From assembly GCA_026648125.1 (NCBI GenBank), contig JAPKGD010000001.1, positions 1 through 24,600 of the forward strand: a stretch of DNA of 24,600 nt, given 5' to 3'. Below the pieces are notes generated by a model. It was not told the origin of the DNA and ran no database searches. It was given only the letters and a program-made list of their open reading frames with translations. Numbering within the stretch: position 1 is the first letter of the stretch; each line of letters begins with the position of its first letter. Position numbers and translations under genes: made by a program. Below, one piece after another: positions 1 to 9,800 of this stretch. The DNA is from Bdellovibrionales bacterium. GTDB lineage: Bacteria > Bdellovibrionota > Bdellovibrionia > Bdellovibrionales > UBA1609.

Positions 1-274
1 GGCCTGGTACAACGACACTCACCTGCACAGCGGAATCCGCTACGTCACGCCGAGCGACCGCCACGCCCGTCGTGATCGCGGCATTCTCCGACACAGGGCC
101 GCTGTCTATGCCGCAGCACGCAAGGTGAACCCCAGGCGCTGGACGGGCAGCACGCGCAACTGGACGCCTATCGGCCCAGTCTTCCTCAATCCGATCAAGC
201 AGGAGGTGCGGACACCCGCGATTGCCACACCGGTCTCGTGATGATCTATCGGACAACTACCTTGACACGCGCCG
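1..274 (+). mobile_element. Right end of an IS3-type insertion sequence
   Basis: CGGACAACTACCTTGACA (250-267) follows the transposase stop and ends in CA, as IS3-family right ends do. The left end is outside the window, so the IR cannot be confirmed. The boundary could be 267 or about 274. Confidence 0.55.
2..241 (+). CDS. 3' end of an IS3-type DDE (integrase-core) transposase, partial at window start
   Basis: Frame 2 is open from the window edge to TGA at 239-241 and reads AWYNDTHLHSGIRYVTPSDRH...ARKVNPRRWTGSTRNW. This matches the WYN..H.HSGI..VTP and RW....RNW C-terminal signature of this transposase group. Not in the ORF track. Confidence 0.85.
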   Translation, partial: AWYNDTHLHSGIRYVTPSDRHARRDRGILRHRAAVYAAARKVNPRRWTGSTRNWTPIGPVFLNPIKQEVRTPAIATPVS

Positions 275-356
275 GAACCTTCCAGGCATATCCCGAGATC
301 ATTCGCGGTCATGTGGCGCGGTTTCTATGATCTCGCATCCATGCGACCATGTTTAG

Positions 357-2024
357 CTAGTTCCCATCCCAGAACGCGAATCCGCTGGGATTTTCGAACC
401 AAATAGAAACATCGGAGTGAACGTCCAACTCGTGTTCGACCAAGAACCGAGAGGAGACGCCACTCCGATGCGCAAGACTATAGACCCGCAAGGGCGCCTG
501 AACCCCCCTCCGTTGGAGCATCCGCATGCCGAGGAGTTGCGCGCCATGGGAGCGCTGCTCGATCGATTGCCCGGTGCGGTGGCACGCGTCCGAAACGATC
601 TAACCGGCAAGGGCGTCAGCACCGTGTTGGGCCGCGAGGGGATGCCGGCGGAGCAAGTGCTTCGCGCGCTGTTGGTGAAGCAGATGACGGGCTTCAGCTA
701 CGAGGAGCTCGCGTTCCATCTGGCCGATTCCGCGTCGTACCGGACGTTCTGCCGGATGGGCATGTGCGACCGGCCGCCGAAGAAGTCGACCCTGCAGCGC
801 AACATCAAGGCGGTGACGCCCGAGACGCTCGAGGCGATCAACCGCGGCATCGTGAAGCTGGCGGCGGAGGATGGCATCGACGACGGTCGCAAGGTCCGAA
901 CGGACTGCACGGTGGTCGCGGCCGCGATCCACGACCCGAGCGACTCGTCGCTGCTCTGGGACTGCGTACGTGTCTTGGCGCGCATCGTCCATCGCGCGCA
1001 GGACTTCGTGACGGTCTCGTTCACCGATCACTGCCGACGCGCGAAACGACGCGCGCTCGGCATTCAGCACGCGCCCACGAAGGCAAAGAGACTGCCGCTC
1101 TATCGCGACCTGCTCGTGTGTGCCGACAACACGGTGCGCGCCGCTGAGCGGGCCAGCGAGAGGCTCGAAGCATTTCGAGGCGGCGACGTGTTCGACGAAG
1201 CCGTGGCGCAGGAGCTCGCACGAGAGCTGCGTTCCTTCGTCGGGCTTGCGCAAAGAGTCATCGACCAGACGCGGCGCCGCGTGTTGAAGGGTGAGTCGGT
1301 CCCGGCGCAGGAGAAGGTCGTGTCGATCTTCGAGCCGCACGTCGACATCATCATCAAGGATCGGCGCGAGGTCCTGTACGGCCACAAGATCTGTCTCTCC
1401 GCCGGCGCATCGGGACTCGTCACCGACGTCGTCGTTCACGAGGGCAACCCGTGCGATTCCACGCTGGCGCTCGAGATGATTCGCCGCCAGACGGAGCTGT
1501 ACGGTCGGCCACCGCGGCAGGTCAGCTTCGACGGTGGCTTCGCATCGCGAGCGAACCTCGAGGCGATCAAAGCCCTCGGTGTGAAGGACGTCGCGTTCAG
1601 CAAGGGCCGCGGCCTCGGTGTCACCGAGATGGTCAAGAGCACGTGGGTCTACCGGAAGCTGCGCAACTTCCGAGCGGGAGTGGAAGGCGTCATCTCGTTC
1701 CTCAAACGCGCGCTCGGTCTGGGCCGCTGCACATGGCGATCGGCCGCGTCCTTCGCGGCGTACACGTGGGCGTCGGTGCTCGCGGCCAACCTGCTCGTGG
1801 TAGCGCGTCACAAGCTGGCGTGACGTCGGCCGACGTCCGAGTGCAGCCGGCGCAACCGACGCGGAGCGCCGTGGTCCGTCCAAAGCACACAGCGATTACG
1901 CAAACTCCCCATCCCGCGGCGCGATTGGGTGCTCGATGCATCTCGCGCTGTCGTACCAGTGAATTGCAGCGCGTCGCTCAACGACGCCCGGCCGCGTAAA
2001 CGCGCATTACGGGATGGGAACTAG
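357..2024 (+). mobile_element. Complete IS (ISNCY / IS5-like DDE), about 1.67 kb
   Basis: The left end CTAGTTCCCATCCCagAAcGCG (357-378) matches the reverse complement of the right end (2003-2024): 14 perfect bp, 19/22 overall. One transposase ORF lies inside. The flanks are CTAG-rich, so the exact end/TSD split is ambiguous by a few bp. Confidence 0.9.
468..1823 (+). CDS. ISNCY/IS5-like DDE transposase
   Basis: ATG at 468 after GAGGAG (451-456); the ORF track starts it at GTG 417. It has the N-terminal DUF772-like motif (LSYEELAFHLADSASYRTF-type) and DDE-type residues in RTDCTVV, SFDGGF and RAGVEGVIS. Confidence 0.9.
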   Translation: MRKTIDPQGRLNPPPLEHPHAEELRAMGALLDRLPGAVARVRNDLTGKGVSTVLGREGMPAEQVLRALLVKQMTGFSYEELAFHLADSASYRTFCRMGMCDRPPKKSTLQRNIKAVTPETLEAINRGIVKLAAEDGIDDGRKVRTDCTVVAAAIHDPSDSSLLWDCVRVLARIVHRAQDFVTVSFTDHCRRAKRRALGIQHAPTKAKRLPLYRDLLVCADNTVRAAERASERLEAFRGGDVFDEAVAQELARELRSFVGLAQRVIDQTRRRVLKGESVPAQEKVVSIFEPHVDIIIKDRREVLYGHKICLSAGASGLVTDVVVHEGNPCDSTLALEMIRRQTELYGRPPRQVSFDGGFASRANLEAIKALGVKDVAFSKGRGLGVTEMVKSTWVYRKLRNFRAGVEGVISFLKRALGLGRCTWRSAASFAAYTWASVLAANLLVVARHKLA

Positions 2025-2341: not shown

Positions 2342-4240
2342 ATGAAATTTCTTGCACAGATTTTACCGTTTATCTTCTCTCTCCTCTGTTTTTCTCCTGC
2401 GTTCGGAGTGACGACGAACTCACCCGATCTCGTTGTTCATCTCCTAGACTATTTGGCGAAAGACTATGGCGGAGCTGTCCAAAACGGGAAAGTCATCAGC
2501 AAGTCTGAATATGCGGAGCAGGTCGAGTTCGCTGAGATTGTAGAAAAGAATGCGAATGGCGTTGCGAAGCTCACCCAAAATACTGCCTTCATGGCAGGAG
2601 TGAATGATCTTCGTTCGCTAATTCAGAAGAAAGGTTCTCCCGAAGAAGTTTCAAGGCTAGCCCGCAAACTTCAGCAAGACGCGATTCTTCTTGTTGGTAT
2701 TGAGGTCGCCCCTACAAAGTGGCCCGAGCTTTCAAAGGGGGCGGCGCTCTATCAGGCCAACTGCGTAAGCTGTCATGGTGCGAACGGAAAAGGAGATGGT
2801 GTTGCGGGTGCAAATCTTGATCCCAAGCCCGCGAACTTTCATGATCCCGAACTTGTCTGGAATAGCGCTCCTTACAAATTTTTTAACACGATTCGCCTTG
2901 GAGTCCCCGGAACCGGCATGGCCGCATTTTCTCATTTAACTGATGAGGAGGTTTGGGCGCTTGCGTTCTATCTAAAGTCTTTGCCTTATGTGGATCGCTC
3001 CAAGGGAACGGCGTCGGGTATGGACTTGTCTCTCAAGGAAACTGCGACCCTCACGGACGCTGAAATTGCCGAACGCATGGGCGGAAAAAAGGATGATGCA
3101 GTTGCGGTCATTGGTTCCCTTCGAGTGAATGAGGGCGGCGCTCAAGGCATCGATCCAATCAGGGTTGCCGAGGATCTTTTGAATGAAAGTTTCGCGGCAG
3201 TGAAGAGCGGTGAATTTGACACTGCAAGTAGACTCTCCCTTCGCGCCTATCTTGAAGGTATCGAGCCGCTGGAGCCAAAGATGAAGGCGAACATTCCGGG
3301 CTCCGTGGAAAATATCGAAGCCCTGATGAGTTCCTATCGATCGTCCCTCGATAAGCGCGATCCGATTACCAAAATCGAAGCCAGGAAAACCGAGATTTTC
3401 GGAAAGCTCAAAGAGCTTCGGCTCGCCTTTTCAGAAAAGAAGATGTCTCCAGGAGTTGCATTTGGTGCGGCCTTTTCGATTTTTCTTCGTGAAGGCTTTG
3501 AGGCCGTCCTCATCATTATCGTTCTCATCAGTATTCTTCGGGCCATGGGTCAGCCCGAGGCCGTTAAATGGGTCCATTACGGATGGTCGGCGGCGATCGG
3601 ACTTGGAGTGGTCGCCTGGTTTGCCTCGGGTCTTTTGCTTTCCATGAGTGGGATGAGCCGAGAACTCATGGAGGGCCTCATCTCCGTGCTCGCGGTTGGA
3701 GTGCTCGTATACGTCGGATTTTGGCTCCATCGCTACTCAGAGGTAAAAAAGTGGCACGCCTTCCTTGAGGCAAAACTTCGACACGGACTAAACAAGGGAA
3801 GCTACCTTGCCCTTGCATTGGTCGCCTTCATGGCGGTTTTCCGGGAAGCGTTTGAGGTTGTGTTGTTCCTGCGGGCAATTTGGATTGATCTCGACCCTTC
3901 CGGCCAGACGGTTGCGGGGACAGGAGTTTTAAGTTCCTTTATTTTACTCATGGGGCTTTCATATTTTGCTGTTCGTGAAAGCGGAAAATTGTCGATCAGG
4001 CTTCTCTTTCAGATTTGCTCATGGACAATGGTCGTACTCGCCGTTGTGCTCGCAGGAAAGGGGGTTCATGCTCTCCAGGAGGCGGGACTCGTTCCCGTGT
4101 CGATGCTCTCGATTCCACTCAGAGTCGATCTGGTCGGGCTCTACCCAAGTATTCAAACTCTGTCGGCTCAAGCAGTGGTGATCGCGGTTTTCGGGCTTTT
4201 TCTTTTCAGTGAAAAAAGTCGGCCAACTCCGGCGGCGTAA
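2342..4240 (+). CDS. Cytochrome c / FTR1-family metal permease fusion (PbrT-like)
   Basis: Signal peptide, heme motif CVSCH, FTR1 motifs LREGFEA and FREAFEV, and a multi-TM C-terminal domain; 632 aa. Confidence 0.9.
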   Translation: MKFLAQILPFIFSLLCFSPAFGVTTNSPDLVVHLLDYLAKDYGGAVQNGKVISKSEYAEQVEFAEIVEKNANGVAKLTQNTAFMAGVNDLRSLIQKKGSPEEVSRLARKLQQDAILLVGIEVAPTKWPELSKGAALYQANCVSCHGANGKGDGVAGANLDPKPANFHDPELVWNSAPYKFFNTIRLGVPGTGMAAFSHLTDEEVWALAFYLKSLPYVDRSKGTASGMDLSLKETATLTDAEIAERMGGKKDDAVAVIGSLRVNEGGAQGIDPIRVAEDLLNESFAAVKSGEFDTASRLSLRAYLEGIEPLEPKMKANIPGSVENIEALMSSYRSSLDKRDPITKIEARKTEIFGKLKELRLAFSEKKMSPGVAFGAAFSIFLREGFEAVLIIIVLISILRAMGQPEAVKWVHYGWSAAIGLGVVAWFASGLLLSMSGMSRELMEGLISVLAVGVLVYVGFWLHRYSEVKKWHAFLEAKLRHGLNKGSYLALALVAFMAVFREAFEVVLFLRAIWIDLDPSGQTVAGTGVLSSFILLMGLSYFAVRESGKLSIRLLFQICSWTMVVLAVVLAGKGVHALQEAGLVPVSMLSIPLRVDLVGLYPSIQTLSAQAVVIAVFGLFLFSEKSRPTPAA

Positions 4241-4265
4241 TACTCAGTTGAGTATGGAACTGCAT

Positions 4266-4289
4266 GTGGCGCGGGAGCTGGCCACTTTT
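4266..4289 (+). terminator. Possible weak intrinsic terminator after the FTR1 gene
   Basis: GTGGC...GCCAC stem followed by TTTT; the stem is short. Confidence 0.3.
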
Positions 4290-4421
4290 CTGGCGCACAG
4301 CAAGGTGAGGTAAGAAAAAGTCGCGTGAACTATTGGACGTTTTGAATCGATACGTTGAGTGATCGGAGAAGAGTGAGAACTAAATTGCTTAAAGAAAAAT
4401 TCAGTGTTAGGGATTGAAGGG

Positions 4422-4748
4422 ATGAAATTTGTTTCATGGTTTCTCATTTTAGCTACGTTCATCGGTGTGGTCACCGGGACAGATGGCGCTTGCCTTGAAA
4501 ACCATGAAACCCAGATCGCTGCCCATCATTCTACAAGCCATTCGACCGATTCGAATTCCGTCCCGTCATCCGATTGCCATCATGAAGGATCTCCATGCCA
4601 TAGTTGCCATCTGGGCCACTGTGCATTTGTAGTGGCCGTCTCTTCAAGTGGCCTTATGGCTCCCGTGCAGAAAATTTTGCCACCTGGGTATCTGGCAACA
4701 TTGCCCACGAGTTACCCGTCCAGCCTTTTTAGACCTCCTATCGCCTAA
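4422..4748 (+). CDS. Small exported His/Cys-rich metal-binding protein (CzcI/DUF2946-like)
   Basis: N-terminal hydrophobic segment, a His-rich tract, CHHEGSPCHSCHLGHC and a C-terminal LFRPPIA (RxPP-type ending). It lies at the head of a czcCBA-like operon. ATG 4422 is preferred to GTG 4404. Confidence 0.65.
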   Translation: MKFVSWFLILATFIGVVTGTDGACLENHETQIAAHHSTSHSTDSNSVPSSDCHHEGSPCHSCHLGHCAFVVAVSSSGLMAPVQKILPPGYLATLPTSYPSSLFRPPIA

Positions 4749-4800
4749 GTCTTTTTCTAGACTCAATCTCAATCTTTTTTCACAACCATAAGGAGGTTTT

Positions 4801-4974
4801 GTGTACGCACGCTTATTTTTACTTTTGTTGCCGATTTTCTTTATTGCTTGCTCGTCAATCGAGCGTAAGCCGAATTGTGTTCAGAATCCGAATTCGCAAA
4901 AAGAAGTTAAATGCGAACAGGAGAAAGCTCCCGAATCTCGATCGACCCACGGAGGATATCGTGAAAGGCCATAG
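4801..4974 (+). CDS. Small lipoprotein (57 aa), not in ORF track
   Basis: AAGGAGG at 4790-4796, then GTG 4801: MYARLFLLLLPIFFIA-CSSIERKPNCVQNPNSQKEVKCEQEKAPESRSTHGGYRERP*. It has a hydrophobic core, a lipobox (FIAC) and two more Cys, and overlaps the start of the TolC gene. Confidence 0.75.
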   Translation: MYARLFLLLLPIFFIACSSIERKPNCVQNPNSQKEVKCEQEKAPESRSTHGGYRERP

Positions 4975-6214
4975 CACGTTGAAAGCAAATCTAATTAAAG
5001 CAGGGGGCATCAGCCTCCTGCTTTTTGTGAGTGTGGGTCAGGGTTTTGCGCAGCCCAACGCCTGCCAGCCGAAAGGATATGAGGAACTCTTAAGATGCGC
5101 GATACGCCAGTCCTCAGAAATGCAGATTGCGGACCAGCAATTAAAGGCGGCGGGCAATCTTGAAGGAATTGCCCGTCAGTGGATAAACCCCGAGCTTGAA
5201 GCTGAAAGCGTACAAAAGAATTCCGACAAGTCCGAAACTACGGCAGCTCTGCTATTCAACATCCGTTTGGGCGGAAAAAGAGGCGCCGCTATCCAGGAAG
5301 CCCAAGGTGAATTTCAGAAAGCACAAGCTGAACGTGATTTAAGTTCCTCACAGGCAAAGTTAGATCTGATCCTGAAACTCTACCGGCTAAATCACTTGAA
5401 ACACGAAATTAAGATCGAAGAAGAATCCGTTTCGACATTTTCTAAAATTATCGGTCAATACCGAGGTAAGGCCGCTCTATCTCCTGAACAAGAAGTCTCC
5501 CTTGCAGTCTTCCGAATGGCGACCTCCGATCATCAGTTGAATCTCGTAAAACTGAAAAGTGAAAAAGAAAAGCTCTTGCAAGAACTTTCGTCCTCCACGA
5601 GCCTCTCCAAAGAACTAATTCTAAGTAATCTTCCGGATCACAAAGTAAATTGGCCGGAGATCTCCAGCAAAGCCCAAATCGAATCTTCGCCCCATGCGAG
5701 ATTTGCGGCTGGGGAATTACTTTCAGCTAAAGGACAGAAGGAAAAAGCCGACGCCGAGGCATGGCCCGACCTCAAGGTTGGCCCCGCCATTAAGATCCAA
5801 AAGGATGGCGGAGCAAGCGAAAATTTTTACGGATTATCGCTCTCGATGCCATTACCTGTCTTTAGTCTCAACGGTGCAGGCCGGACCTATGGTTCGCAGA
5901 AATTGGTAGGAGCTGAAATGAACCATTCGCTTACTAGCCGAAAAGTATCGGGACTGCGCGAGCAACTGGCGGAAAAATATCGAGCCACCGTCTCAATTCT
6001 CAAGGCCTCGATTACAGACAAATCCGCCGAAGAAAAACATGAGCGCATTGAACGGCACTTTTTCAGAGGGCTTGTCTCGAGTTCCCTTGTTATCGAGGCG
6101 CATCGTCAACTTATTGAACTTGAGGAAAAGCGAAATGAGTCTGAGCGCGACGCCCTTGAAGCCCTCGGGGCAATCCTCATTATCGACAATCAATTCTCTG
6201 AGGTAATCCTATGA
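4961..6214 (+). CDS. czcC: TolC/CzcC-family outer-membrane efflux channel
   Basis: GTG 4961 after GGAGG (4951-4955), then a signal peptide. Two OEP-like repeats (QWINPELEAE...; EAWPDLKVG...GLSLSMPLPVF). The ORF track's 4799 start is too far upstream. Confidence 0.85.
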   Translation: MKGHSTLKANLIKAGGISLLLFVSVGQGFAQPNACQPKGYEELLRCAIRQSSEMQIADQQLKAAGNLEGIARQWINPELEAESVQKNSDKSETTAALLFNIRLGGKRGAAIQEAQGEFQKAQAERDLSSSQAKLDLILKLYRLNHLKHEIKIEEESVSTFSKIIGQYRGKAALSPEQEVSLAVFRMATSDHQLNLVKLKSEKEKLLQELSSSTSLSKELILSNLPDHKVNWPEISSKAQIESSPHARFAAGELLSAKGQKEKADAEAWPDLKVGPAIKIQKDGGASENFYGLSLSMPLPVFSLNGAGRTYGSQKLVGAEMNHSLTSRKVSGLREQLAEKYRATVSILKASITDKSAEEKHERIERHFFRGLVSSSLVIEAHRQLIELEEKRNESERDALEALGAILIIDNQFSEVIL

Positions 6215-6816
6215 AATACCTATTTATTCTCATCACGCTCTTTGCCTATGGGGTCACTAATTTTGTGAGTGCCGGGGAAAAAGACCATAAGCATACAGAA
6301 AAAAAAGCCGAAGACGACCACGATGAAAATCATGGCGAACACAACGAACATGAGGGCCATGCTGAAAAGCATGCCCACGGGCATGGCGATAATGAAAGTG
6401 AAGATAAACGCGCGGCTCACGATGAACATGAACACGAAGGTCATGGCGAGCACGAAGAGAATGCCCAGGTTGGACCCAATAAAGGCATTTTAGAAGCAAA
6501 TGAAACTGATGGAATCAAATTGTCACCAGAAGCCGAAAAGAATTTTGAAATTTCTAGGATCAAGGCATCGGGAAACCCAATTGAACTTCCTCAGAAGGCG
6601 ATTGTAAGTGCTGTATCTGAAATCAACGTCTATCGCTATCGGAACGGCTTTTATAAGCGCATCGATTTTGAAGAGGTGGCTCGGAAAAGCGACAAAGTCA
6701 CCATTCGTTCTAAAGATATTAGAGCTGGAGATGAAATTGTCACTCAAGGACTTGGCTTCCTTCGGCTTGCAGAAATTGCGGCTTTCGGTGGCGCTCCCGA
6801 AGGTCACTCACATTAA
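6211..6816 (+). CDS. His-rich, very short CzcB/MFP-related periplasmic protein (membrane-proximal domain only)
   Basis: Signal peptide and about 15 His in about 60 aa. IKLSPEAEKNFEI resembles the CzcB N-terminal strand/helix and is joined directly to ELPQKAIV...IRAGDEIVTQGLGFLRLAE, which resembles the CzcB C-terminus. It occupies the czcB position; 201 aa. Confidence 0.7.
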   Translation: MKYLFILITLFAYGVTNFVSAGEKDHKHTEKKAEDDHDENHGEHNEHEGHAEKHAHGHGDNESEDKRAAHDEHEHEGHGEHEENAQVGPNKGILEANETDGIKLSPEAEKNFEISRIKASGNPIELPQKAIVSAVSEINVYRYRNGFYKRIDFEEVARKSDKVTIRSKDIRAGDEIVTQGLGFLRLAEIAAFGGAPEGHSH

Positions 6817-6828
6817 GAGGAATTTAAA

Positions 6829-9800
6829 ATGCTAAACCAAATTATTCGAATTTCCATATACAACCGCGGAGTGGTCCTTTTTATGACTCTCTTGATGGCG
6901 GTCGCGGGACTTTATACGTTTCAGCACCTTCCAATCGATGCAGTTCCAGATATCACTAATAACCAAGTTCAAATTAACACCGTCATTGAGGGACTCGCTC
7001 CGGAAGAAATCGAAAGGACCATTACCTTTCCCGTTGAATCCTCCATGCGAGGAATTGCTGGTGTTGAACAGGTTCGTTCGATTACACGCTTTGGTCTTTC
7101 TCAGGTGACAGTCGTATTCAAGGATGAAGTTGATGTTTATCGAGCGAGGCAACTCGTGACCGAGAGACTTCAGGGCGTTTCAGGAGATTTACCCGCCCAA
7201 GCACGTCCCGAGCTCGGCCCAATCTCGACGGGGTTGGGTGAAATCTATCAGTACGTTCTTGATTTCAAAGAGCGCGCCCAGGGAGAAGCCCGCATTAGAC
7301 AACTCATGGAGCTGAAGTCCCTTCAGGATTGGTTCATCAAACCCCGTCTCTTGACGGCCGAAGGTGTCGCTGAAATCAACACCTCCGGAGGTTTTGAGAA
7401 ACAATACCACGTACAACCTGACCCAAAGAAAATGGCTGCCAACGGCATTCACTTTGACGAAATTAAACAAGCTCTTGAAAAAGTAAATAGGAACGTCGGC
7501 GGAGGATATGTTGAACAAACCGCTGAGCAATTTCTTGTTCAGGGGGTTGGTCTAATTAAATCTGCTAAGGAGATTGAACGAATCCCGGTGAAAACTCTCG
7601 AATCGTTCAAGATCATTACGATTGGGGATATTGCCAAAGTTGCTCTCGGCAAAGAACTCAGGACCGGAGCAGCAACTTACGATGGTGATGAAGCCGTATT
7701 AGGTACAGTCATGATGCTCCTGGGAGAAAACAGCCGAACCGTTTCAACCAGAGTTCATGACAGAGTCGAAGAAATCAGAAAATCGCTTCCTAAAGATATC
7801 GAGCTGACAACGGTTTACAACCGCTCTGATCTTGTGAATGCTACGCTTGGGACGGTCGAGCACAACTTGATAATGGGCGCGATTCTTGTGACGGTCATCC
7901 TTCTCATTTTGCTTGGAAACATTCGCGCGGCCCTTATCACAGCCTTGACGATTCCATTTTCATTGCTTGCTACATTTCTGGTTATGAAGCCCCTTGGAAT
8001 TTCAGGAAACCTGATGAGCCTTGGAGCGCTCGATTTCGGAATCATCGTCGACGGAACAGTGATAGTTCTCGACAACTGTGTCAGATTTATTCATGAACGG
8101 ACAAAATCTTTAAAGCGCGGTCTCTCTGCCGATGAGGTCAAAGAAGCTGTTTATCAGGCTACAGTGGAAATTCGTTCAGCTGCCGGTTTTGGACAGTTCA
8201 TTATTGTGATGGTATTTTTGCCAGTTTTTGCTCTGACTGGCGTTGAAGGCAAAATGTTCATTCCAATGGCATCAACCTTTGCCATCGCTGTGCTTGCGGC
8301 GTTCATTCTCTCGTTTACCACCGCGCCTGCTCTAGCAAGTCTTTTGCTCTCGGGAAATGCCAGCGACAAAGAGCCGCGTCTCATGGTTTGGATTCGTAAA
8401 CTCTATGTTCCCGCGTTCGAATGGTCCTTTAAACGCGCAAAACTCACCATGGCCCTAGCCCTGGCCTCGGTGGTTTTAGGAGTAGGCTTATTCATGACCC
8501 GAGGGGCTGAGTTTTTACCGCAGTTGGGTGAAGGCTCGTTTGCGTTTCATATGATTCGCCCCGTAAATGCGAGCCTTAGCCAATCGGTTGAGTTTCAGAA
8601 AAAGGCCGACCGTGTGGTCGAGAGTTTCCCAGAAGTTGACCACGTTTTTTCAAGAATTGGGACAAGCGAAGTCGCCACCGACCCTATGGGAGTTAACGTG
8701 TCTGATACCTATATCATGTTAAAACCCAGATCGGAGTGGCCAAAGGCGAATGGAAGCCGCAGAACGTATCAAGAGTTGACGGAGTCGATTGTCGAGAAAC
8801 TGAACCGTGAACTTCCGGGCCAAACTTATCTTGCTTCACAGCCGATTCAAATGCGCTTCAACGAGCTCCTAGAGGGCACGAGAGCTGATGTGGCAGTGAA
8901 GATCTTCGGACCAGACTTGGATAAACTGGTCGAATTTGCAAAGAAGACTCAGGAAGTGATTTCGAAGGTCAAAGGAGCTGGCGACGTAGAAGTCGATCTG
9001 GCAGGAACTTCCCCTGTTTTAAAGATCGAGCCAAATGAGAGTAGCCTCATGCGCTACAACGCTTCGATTTCTGATGTGTTGGATTCCATTTCCATTGCTC
9101 TTGGTGGACAGGAAGCCGGATTCTTGTACGAGGCGGAAAAGAAGTTCCCTATCGTTGTTCGGCTCGACGATCAAGCCAGGTCAGATCTGGGAACTATTCG
9201 AGAGCTTCCAGTGGGAATCGGATCGAATACCATTGTTCCTCTAAAGAACCTTGCTTCCATCTCATTTAAAGAGACCTATGGATCAGTCAATAGAGAAAAC
9301 TCAAATCGTAGGTCTGCGGTTCTTATCAACCTTCGAGGGCGTGACACGGAATCATTCGTTAAGGAAGCGCAAGAAGCCGTGGCGAAAGAAATTAAACTCC
9401 CTGATGGATACTATTTTGAGTGGGGAGGAAATTTTAAAAACTTAGAGCAAGCAAGATCTCGGCTCATGATATTAGCACCCATTGCCTTGGTTTTAGTTTT
9501 AATGATGGTCTACGCCGCTTTTGGCAGTATTGGTGAAACGCTTCTAATTTTTGGATGTGTGCCGATGGCTCTCGTAGGTGGAGTTATCGGATTAATTCTC
9601 AATGGCCTTCCCTTTAGCATTTCTGCTGGAATTGGCTTTATCGCTCTTTCGGGAATTGCAGTCTTGAACGGAGTGGTTCTTGTCAATTTCTTTAATCAGC
9701 TCAAAGCCGAAGGCAAGACAGGTAAGGATCTCGTGCTACAGGGAACGCTCGTCCGTCTTCGTCCCGTGATGATGACGGCTCTTGTGGCTGTTTTCGGGTT

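Follow-up and report, generated by a model that had tools for sequence, protein, structure and literature searches.

How is a metal pump assembled when the protein encoded in its adaptor slot retains only one of an adaptor's domains? In the models of tripartite efflux built on AcrAB-TolC, MexAB-OprM and CusCBA, pump and channel are joined solely through the hairpins of the adaptor hexamer. The stretch of DNA analysed here (hereafter the window; 24,600 nucleotides, positions 1 to 24,600 of the forward strand of contig JAPKGD010000001.1, assembly GCA_026648125.1, from a Bdellovibrionales bacterium) raises this question, as it contains an operon in which a 201-residue protein, which we call the mini-adaptor, is encoded in the czcB slot, between an outer-membrane factor (OMF) on one side and a resistance-nodulation-division (RND) pump of heavy-metal-efflux (HME) type on the other. 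We confirm that the mini-adaptor is a real, conserved adaptor. Its folded part is predicted to be the membrane-proximal (MP) domain alone, and the predatory members of the Bdellovibrionota that carry it probably assemble their metal pump in a non-standard way.

The open reading frame (ORF) of the mini-adaptor (6211-6816, forward strand) translates into 201 residues without an internal stop. It begins with an ATG that shares bases with the TGA of the OMF gene upstream (ATGA, 6211-6214) and lies 8 nt 3' of a GAGG, while its own stop codon (TAA, 6814-6816) is followed, after a 12-nt spacer that again carries GAGG, by the start of the RND gene at 6829. The ATGA overlap, and with it translational coupling, suggests that the products are co-produced subunits. 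A first-pass annotation of the window had described an intact 201-codon gene in the czcB slot with the pump starting 12 nt later, of which about 80 residues were signal peptide and His tract, and the translation bears this out (residues 1-21 and 22-85, respectively). It had further read the remainder as the N- and C-terminal parts of an MP domain fused directly to each other, with no remnant of the hairpin, lipoyl and beta-barrel domains, and both points hold in the predicted structure.

In the AlphaFold2 (AF2) model, the predicted local distance difference test (pLDDT) score exceeds 90 at approximately residues 90-190, and the only helices are the signal peptide and residues 106-111 and 181-192. 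There is no coiled coil, and no hairpin, lipoyl or beta-barrel element appears in the model or in profile scans. The best Foldseek matches are CusB (from the CusBA complex), AcrA, BesA, an engineered SilB construct and ZneB, with probabilities of 0.99-1.00. By VIA, model residues 99-193 align with CusB (3ne5_C, chain positions 79..396) at Z 9.9 with a root-mean-square deviation (rmsd) of 2.5 over 94 residues, and the model aligns with ZneB (3lnn_A, 10..350) at Z 8.4 with an rmsd of 3.0 over 91 residues. BesA follows at Z 7.2 (rmsd 2.5-2.6 over 77-79 residues; model 106/111-188 on chain 43/45..300), then TriA/B, AcrA, MexA and MacA at Z 5.5-6.9; unrelated folds reach no more than 2.7. Because the CusB and ZneB alignments take the first and last pieces of these adaptors and skip the middle, the folded part is, as modelled, the MP domain alone, with its N-terminal strand joined straight to its C-terminal part. 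This domain explains all 110 ordered residues (VIA), and in full-length CzcB/CusB clusters of the ESM Atlas just ~93-102 residues align with the mini-adaptor. No CusF-like chain was present among the structural matches, a list that a distant likeness could escape.

The mini-adaptor belongs to a broad family of equally short proteins. A word-based search returned 311 homologues of 148-218 aa, and an exhaustive HMMER search with residues 85-201 against 1.84 billion cluster representatives returned 503 of these, 230 at E ≤1e-10. The best 150 of these 503 measure 51-251 aa, save for one oddity of 1440 aa, and homologues reach down to ~31% identity at the same short length. A profile built from 45 diverse members matches 127/401 Bdellovibrionota genomes, in 74 of the 203 genera, with frames of 133-277 aa; the single 325-aa frame has an internal TGA. 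Among named records, carriers include Bdellovibrio, Pseudobdellovibrio and Bacteriovoracaceae, and cultured carriers with complete genomes include B. bacteriovorus Bd5, Bdellovibrio sp. qaytius, HCB-162 and HCB-110. At present the family genes are annotated as 'hypothetical protein' and belong to no Pfam family; Pfam scans of 45 diverse MP-domain pieces gave chance-level matches only, with no Biotin_lipoyl, HlyD_D23 or BSH at E ≤0.1. Short Bdellovibrionota clusters of the one-domain kind, without Pfam labels, are also seen in the ESM Atlas. The Atlas holds in addition a 148-aa cluster (312 members) and a 245-aa cluster labelled CzcB_C / RND-MFP_C only, mostly from Verrucomicrobiota, which may represent an independent lineage of one-domain adaptors.

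Gene order is also preserved. Among 59 related loci, a list that was built on closer alignment and is biased to close relatives, an OMF lies 5' of the mini-adaptor in 55 and an RND pump 3' of it in 57, usually with the 4-bp overlap. The exceptions are contig ends or OMFs too divergent for BLAST, and the OMF-mini-RND layout is retained in members at just 34-37% identity. Purifying selection acts on the MP domain: its omega (dN/dS) is 0.058-0.134 and that of the pump 0.02-0.06, values computed for the few locus pairs with unsaturated dS, as dS was saturated in most. The N-terminal tract changes more rapidly than the folded domain does. Three motifs of the MP domain (listed in Table 1) and a terminal G-H-x-H are conserved in the family; H-x-H makes up the final three residues in 241/266 members, with H199 and H201 invariant or nearly so. 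Across the family the N-terminal tract has a median length of 57 aa (range 0-115) and is 17.5% His and 53% His, Asp and Glu together, with neither Met nor Cys. When solved structures were searched with a profile of the full-length family alignment, the only matches were low-complexity ones (calnexin, ryanodine receptor) driven by this acidic, His-rich tract, and we rejected them as uninformative.

If the mini-adaptor were an ordinary adaptor, it should carry the features of the adaptor family. We compared six. The hairpin, the lipoyl domain and the beta-barrel are missing, and the score against the adaptor profile TIGR01730 (RND_mfp) is 20.6 bits where the cut-off is 94.9 (residues 118-185 on profile positions 247-314 of 322; E 1.8e-4). 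The MP domain is present. Of the sixth feature, which is to be encoded beside a cognate RND transporter and to bind it, the adjacency is seen in 57/59 loci, and the binding is predicted by the complex model described below. With four of the six features lacking, the mini-adaptor is a derived one-domain variant and not an ordinary adaptor; we take it to derive from metal RND pump adaptors of the CzcB/CusB type, with only their MP domain retained.

The partner pump of the window matches TIGR00914 at 1230.6 bits (cut-off 701.45; residues 1-1037 on profile positions 1-1038 of 1051) and aligns end to end with ZneA (E 3.7e-182) and CusA (E 4.7e-167), its closest solved structures, which places it in the CusA/CzcA heavy-metal-efflux RND family (12 transmembrane segments, two large periplasmic loops). 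In a maximum-likelihood tree of the RND pumps of the phylum, all 12 of the 12 sampled pumps linked to a mini-adaptor fall into one clade (support 100/100), and the association of the mini-adaptor with this single clade is one-to-one. The sister of the clade is a CusA-like pair, L111 and L112; a full-length adaptor adjoins L112, and no neighbour was recognised beside L111. Seven residues, E138, H574, R577, D618, M620, D626 and E679, are specific to the mini-linked clade. His574 (26/30) and Glu679 (30/30) align with CusA Met573 and Met672, and Glu138, Asp618 and Asp626 align with ZneA Glu136, Asp602 and Glu610.

A complex of residues 1-878 of the pump and 85-201 of the mini-adaptor, modelled on alignments drawn from the same loci and alongside three controls, scored an ipSAE of 0.70, 0.71 and 0.70, compared to 0.00 for the best control. 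The runs share at least 84% of their contacts, with a partner pLDDT of at least 77. On the mini-adaptor, the predicted interface comprises residues 86, 90-93, 104-111, 133-136 and 182-194, and these residues are the family's conserved motifs; on the pump, it comprises 577-596 and 656-666 (PC1), plus 729, 785, 787 and 813. From this we infer docking of these motifs at the PC1 flank of the periplasmic domain of the pump; the model supports binding without showing it. In the CusBA complex, CusA Glu584 and C-terminal residues of CusB probably form salt bridges. On the pump side, R577, Q585, F589, K592, E661, G664 and F813 are conserved in the mini-linked clade and differ in the other RNDs of the phylum, a contrast that is partly family-level, as most of the compared RNDs belong to other subfamilies. 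His574 precedes the first predicted contact residue by three residues, and the C-terminal His pair of the mini-adaptor follows directly after its interface helix, so a hand-off or switching of metal at the periplasmic cleft is geometrically plausible. The first-pass annotation had proposed checking the mini-adaptor by structural comparison with CusB and ZneB, by the recurrence of homologues of about 200 aa in the same operon, by dN/dS and by modelling a complex of the pump, mini-adaptor, lipoproteins and TolC. The fold is related to the MP domain, the short homologues recur in many genomes, omega is low, and the model of pump with mini-adaptor stands well clear of its controls.

What, then, might the mini-adaptor do? 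MP domains have been tied to substrate selection and presentation, which is described as 'clearly demonstrated' in metal-pump adaptors, and Cu(I) is known to travel from CusF to CusB to CusA (PMC8277102). With moderate confidence, we favour an explanation in which the mini-adaptor is a pump-docked, MP-only adaptor whose His arms present metal to the pump or activate it, and in which the OMF couples to the pump free of hairpins. The protein would be a soluble periplasmic MP domain with two flexible, histidine-bearing arms; its conserved motifs would dock on the PC1 flank, placing the C-terminal His pair, to judge by sequence adjacency alone, near the periplasmic cleft. By analogy with CusB, the arms would gather divalent metal of the Zn/Co/Cd/Ni type and then either pass it to the periplasmic site of the pump or switch the pump on. 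The N-terminal tract is rich in His and carboxylates and lacks Met and Cys, a composition that points to divalent metals of the borderline or hard kind rather than to Cu(I)/Ag(I). Since no part of the mini-adaptor can reach the channel, coupling of the OMF to the pump would have to do without a tube of hairpins. Direct docking of channel tip to pump crown would be the likeliest route, and it is the least certain step of the proposal.

We surveyed the neighbours of the best RND gene in each of 30 Bdellovibrionota genomes, recognising genes within 1.5 kb. A canonical adaptor adjoins the RND gene in 3 genomes; in 14 an OMF lies directly 5' of it without an adaptor, 4 have an OMF plus a mini-adaptor, 3 have the order RND-small-OMF, and 6 have no recognisable neighbour in that range. 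The complete genome of Bd5 (NZ_CP168968.1) contains eight RND genes, none of which (0/8) has an adaptor neighbour: they include four OMF-RND two-gene pairs (L069, L072, L074, L075), one RND-small-OMF cluster (L070) and one of the OMF-mini-RND type, whose operon lies at about 2,678,500-2,683,500. Bd5 does encode four recognisable adaptors, all within ABC-transporter operons (OEP-MFP-MacB, MFP+ABC, OEP-MFP-ABC2, plus a 582-aa protein), and the MP region is missing from two, of 245 and 261 aa. In the genome to which the window belongs, which is 74% complete, no adaptor scored over the cut-off and tblastn gave no match to the Bd5 adaptors; its other RND fragments likewise adjoin OMF genes. The second adaptor-less layout consists of a 90-aa ORF, the RND gene (1041 aa), a 132-aa ORF, the OMF (408 aa) and a 139-aa ORF, and is found at L070 (Bd5, 4030-9500) and at L002/L003 (1-4500). 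The 132- and 139-aa ORFs of L070 were considered as relatives of the mini-adaptor and proved unrelated by hhalign.

On these counts, the missing bridge characterises the phylum and not just one operon, which favours a non-canonical, probably direct, docking of pump and channel. The direct-docking or 'deep interpenetration' geometry has been abandoned for E. coli. We only tentatively entertain the fuller form of this idea, in which the Bdellovibrionota largely do without hairpin adaptors for their RND pumps, pump and channel dock directly, and the mini-adaptor is a presenting or gating subunit and not a bridge. Of adaptors that lack the hairpin, a 2015 review holds that they are compatible only with the model of direct pump-channel contact (PMC4446572).

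Other explanations place the mini-adaptor differently. It might be merely an accessory chaperone to a system whose hexameric bridge is formed by a full-length adaptor from elsewhere. Adaptors and RND pumps usually pair specifically and come from one operon, and this speaks against a borrowed bridge, as do the confinement of all four Bd5 adaptors to ABC operons, two of them without an MP region, the lack of an adaptor neighbour at every Bd5 RND gene and the negative tblastn search of the window's own genome. On the other hand, canonical tripartite pumps depend on an adaptor with a hairpin (PMC4446572, PMC8277102), carrier genomes such as Bd5 do hold adaptor genes, a canonical adaptor adjoins the pump at 3/30 RND loci of the phylum, and the window's genome is incomplete; on balance we regard a fourth component as unlikely. 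Could the protein instead be a free periplasmic metal buffer or chaperone, like CusF, CzcE or SilE, that never docks on the pump? It is soluble, with a signal peptide and a long disordered His/Glu/Asp tract, and metal-resistance operons often encode small periplasmic metal binders (PMC4338810). However, conservation is strongest in the MP domain and its surface motifs and not in the tract, the fold is that of the domain with which adaptors bind the pump, the complex model clears its controls, and the family is strictly tied to one RND clade whose matching surface is conserved, so that a wholly free chaperone seems to us quite improbable.

A bridge might also be supplied by another protein, such as the small lipoproteins of the operon, its CopL-like protein or an adaptor family of the phylum yet to be described. 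The operon does encode small proteins of unknown function, and the lipoprotein YbjP was recently seen bound to TolC in E. coli pumps (PMC13095208; PDB titles). Yet none of the candidates is universal in the 59 loci (CopL-like 36, 114-aa lipoprotein 15, 57-aa lipoprotein 3), and at 57-114 aa they would be too small for the gap left by a hairpin hexamer, which makes such a bridge very unlikely. The first-pass annotation had itself offered two alternatives. Of one, a metallochaperone with bridging by the two operon lipoproteins or by an adaptor encoded in trans, the chaperone-like role is plausible because the mini-adaptor bears metal-binding tails; bridging by the lipoproteins, with their patchy occurrence, is not supported, and an RND-type adaptor in trans is unlikely, given the ABC setting of the Bd5 adaptors and the absence of any from the window's own incomplete genome. 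The other, a clean in-frame deletion, which in a strain or lineage could have left a decaying, no longer functional remnant of czcB, would fit the domain boundary, which resembles a clean excision of three central domains. It is contradicted by hundreds of equally short homologues down to ~31% identity in 74 genera, by the shared operon, by an omega far under 1, by invariant terminal motifs and by the lack of a full-length relative in sequence searches, and we give it practically no weight.

Several observations weigh against a pump-docked, metal-presenting MP adaptor working without a tube. At the level of sequence, the similarity of the mini-adaptor to adaptors is marginal: its own Pfam scan gave no match, and hhalign against a canonical adaptor from the same phylum placed it correctly and weakly (E 0.0056, probability 6.5%). 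That the word-based search found no longer relative (353-2000 aa) at E ≤0.01 is weak evidence. The score of the complex model may partly reflect memory, as CusBA (3ne5) is a solved structure, and the alignments behind it are shallow, so that the calibration of the ipSAE mark, which was reached in 58/80 solved complexes and 2/110 mismatched pairs, holds only roughly. Of the 266 family sequences, 219 allowed the N-terminal tract to be delimited; it is missing or shorter than 10 residues in 16 of these and so cannot be essential, and the metal specificity is inferred from composition only. Neither the OMF helices nor the docking region of the pump shows a length change that would signal direct docking, and the window's own genome is just 74% complete.

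The features of the operon are collected in Table 1, and its other genes are informative about the setting of the mini-adaptor. The Cys/His-rich core of the CopL-like protein contains CHHEGSPCHSCHLGHC; a homologue lies 5' of the OMF in 36/59 related loci, frequently as the first gene of the operon, and the protein may be its sensor or regulator. For the OMF, GTG 4961 is most likely the start rather than 4799 (a 471-aa ORF), as GGAGGA precedes it and homologues measure 403-436 aa. The OMF matches OEP (PF02321) at 36.6 bits (cut-off 22), with one repeat scored only. In its AF2 model (pLDDT 86.6) the long helices span 63 and 45+16 residues and the topology is the canonical one of TolC, and Foldseek matches it to CmeC, TolC, VceC, OprM and CusC (TMq 0.60-0.72, 12-15% identity, E 1e-13). 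The 114-aa lipoprotein was without a match in Pfam and NCBIfam scans and has a homologue 3' of the pump in 15/59 loci; given the YbjP-TolC structures, it could by analogy be an accessory of the OMF or the pump. The 57-aa lipoprotein is kept (59-63% identity) in only 3/59 loci, the closest ones (L001, L016, L017), and is at most a clade-specific accessory.

Table 1. Features of the efflux operon, in window coordinates.
Feature	Position	Strand	Notes
CopL-like small protein, 114 aa	4404..4748	+	Cys/His-rich, N-terminal hydrophobic segment; NF033807 CopL_fam 26.7 bits, cut-off 40
Lipoprotein ORF, 57 aa	4801-4974		lipobox FIAC; overlaps over-extended OMF frame
Outer-membrane factor (OMF; TolC/CzcC family), 417 aa	4961..6214	+	signal peptide, no lipobox; Pfam OEP
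Mini-adaptor: signal peptide, residues 1-21	6211..6273	+	Sec-type, MKYLFILITLFAYGVTNFVSA followed by GEK, no Cys/lipobox; AF2 helix at residues 2-15
Mini-adaptor: disordered His/Glu/Asp-rich tract, residues 22-85	6274..6465	+	15 His, 16 Glu, 7 Asp in 64 residues; pLDDT ~50
Mini-adaptor: MP domain, residues 86-196	6466..6798	+	VIA/Foldseek; motifs QVGPxKGIL, LSPEAEKNF, GFLRxAEIAAFGG
Mini-adaptor: flexible E-G-H-S-H tail and stop codon	6799..6816	+	pLDDT <50
HME-type RND pump (CzcA/ZneA-like), 1044 aa	6829..9963	+	TIGR00914
Lipoprotein, 114 aa	9991..10335	+	lipobox ASGC; translation; optional accessory gene

Beyond the operon, a 632-aa protein in which a cytochrome c domain is fused to an FTR1-type iron permease (2342-4240) is encoded 5' of the efflux module, and the same fusion adjoins the module in L001 and L017. 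The module is flanked by a DDE transposase (417-1823) and by a conjugative element (from ~11970), and the mini-linked RND pumps are 56-93% identical across the phylum, while OMF identity drops to 28%. The high conservation of the pump, together with the transposase and conjugative-element flanks, suggests that the module spread horizontally inside the Bdellovibrionota.

In full-text literature on Bdellovibrio RND pumps, adaptors and TolC, we found no paper that describes a one-domain adaptor, and genes until now labelled 'hypothetical protein' can be re-annotated as such. With a widespread, selected adaptor made of the MP domain only, nature separates the two jobs of adaptors: contact with the pump together with substrate presentation, and the bridge to the channel. 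Such an adaptor is a minimal system in which to study the function of the MP domain and metal hand-off, and it poses a testable question, namely how the pump is coupled to its channel when no tube joins them; were direct docking true, nature would have supplied the proof that trans-envelope RND efflux does not universally require the adaptor tube. The module is a compact set of three genes present in cultured strains, which makes genetics, reconstitution and cryo-EM feasible.

The mini-adaptor shares traits with several known systems. Like CusB, ZneB and CzcB (PDB 3ne5, 3lnn), it has the MP fold, a slot beside a CzcA/CusA-type pump and flexible metal-binding termini, and it is predicted to dock on the periplasmic domain of the pump. 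Unlike them, it has no beta-barrel, lipoyl or alpha-hairpin domain, without which it is unable to form a hexameric tube to the channel, and its metal arms, in contrast to those of CusB-type adaptors, are built of His and carboxylates and not of Met. Reviews name only two aberrant adaptors, BesA, which has no hairpin, and EmrA, which has no MP domain (PMC4446572, PMC8277102). Whereas BesA of Borrelia burgdorferi (PDB 4kks-4kku) lacks the hairpin, the mini-adaptor lacks three domains, and EmrA of Aquifex aeolicus is without the sole domain that the mini-adaptor retains. The mini-adaptor also resembles CusF, SilE and CzcE in being a small secreted metal binder that is encoded with an RND metal pump and likely feeds or regulates it; CusF, however, is a shuttle, a small five-stranded barrel of OB-like fold that binds metal through Met, His and Trp, whereas the mini-adaptor has the fold of an adaptor domain and is a predicted docked subunit. 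In architecture it is almost identical to an engineered SilB construct of 180 residues (PDB 5a4g), a match of both Foldseek and VIA, which consists of the N-terminal metal stretch and the MP domain alone. That construct is a laboratory truncation, whereas the mini-adaptor is natural and conserved and carries an extra C-terminal GHxH.

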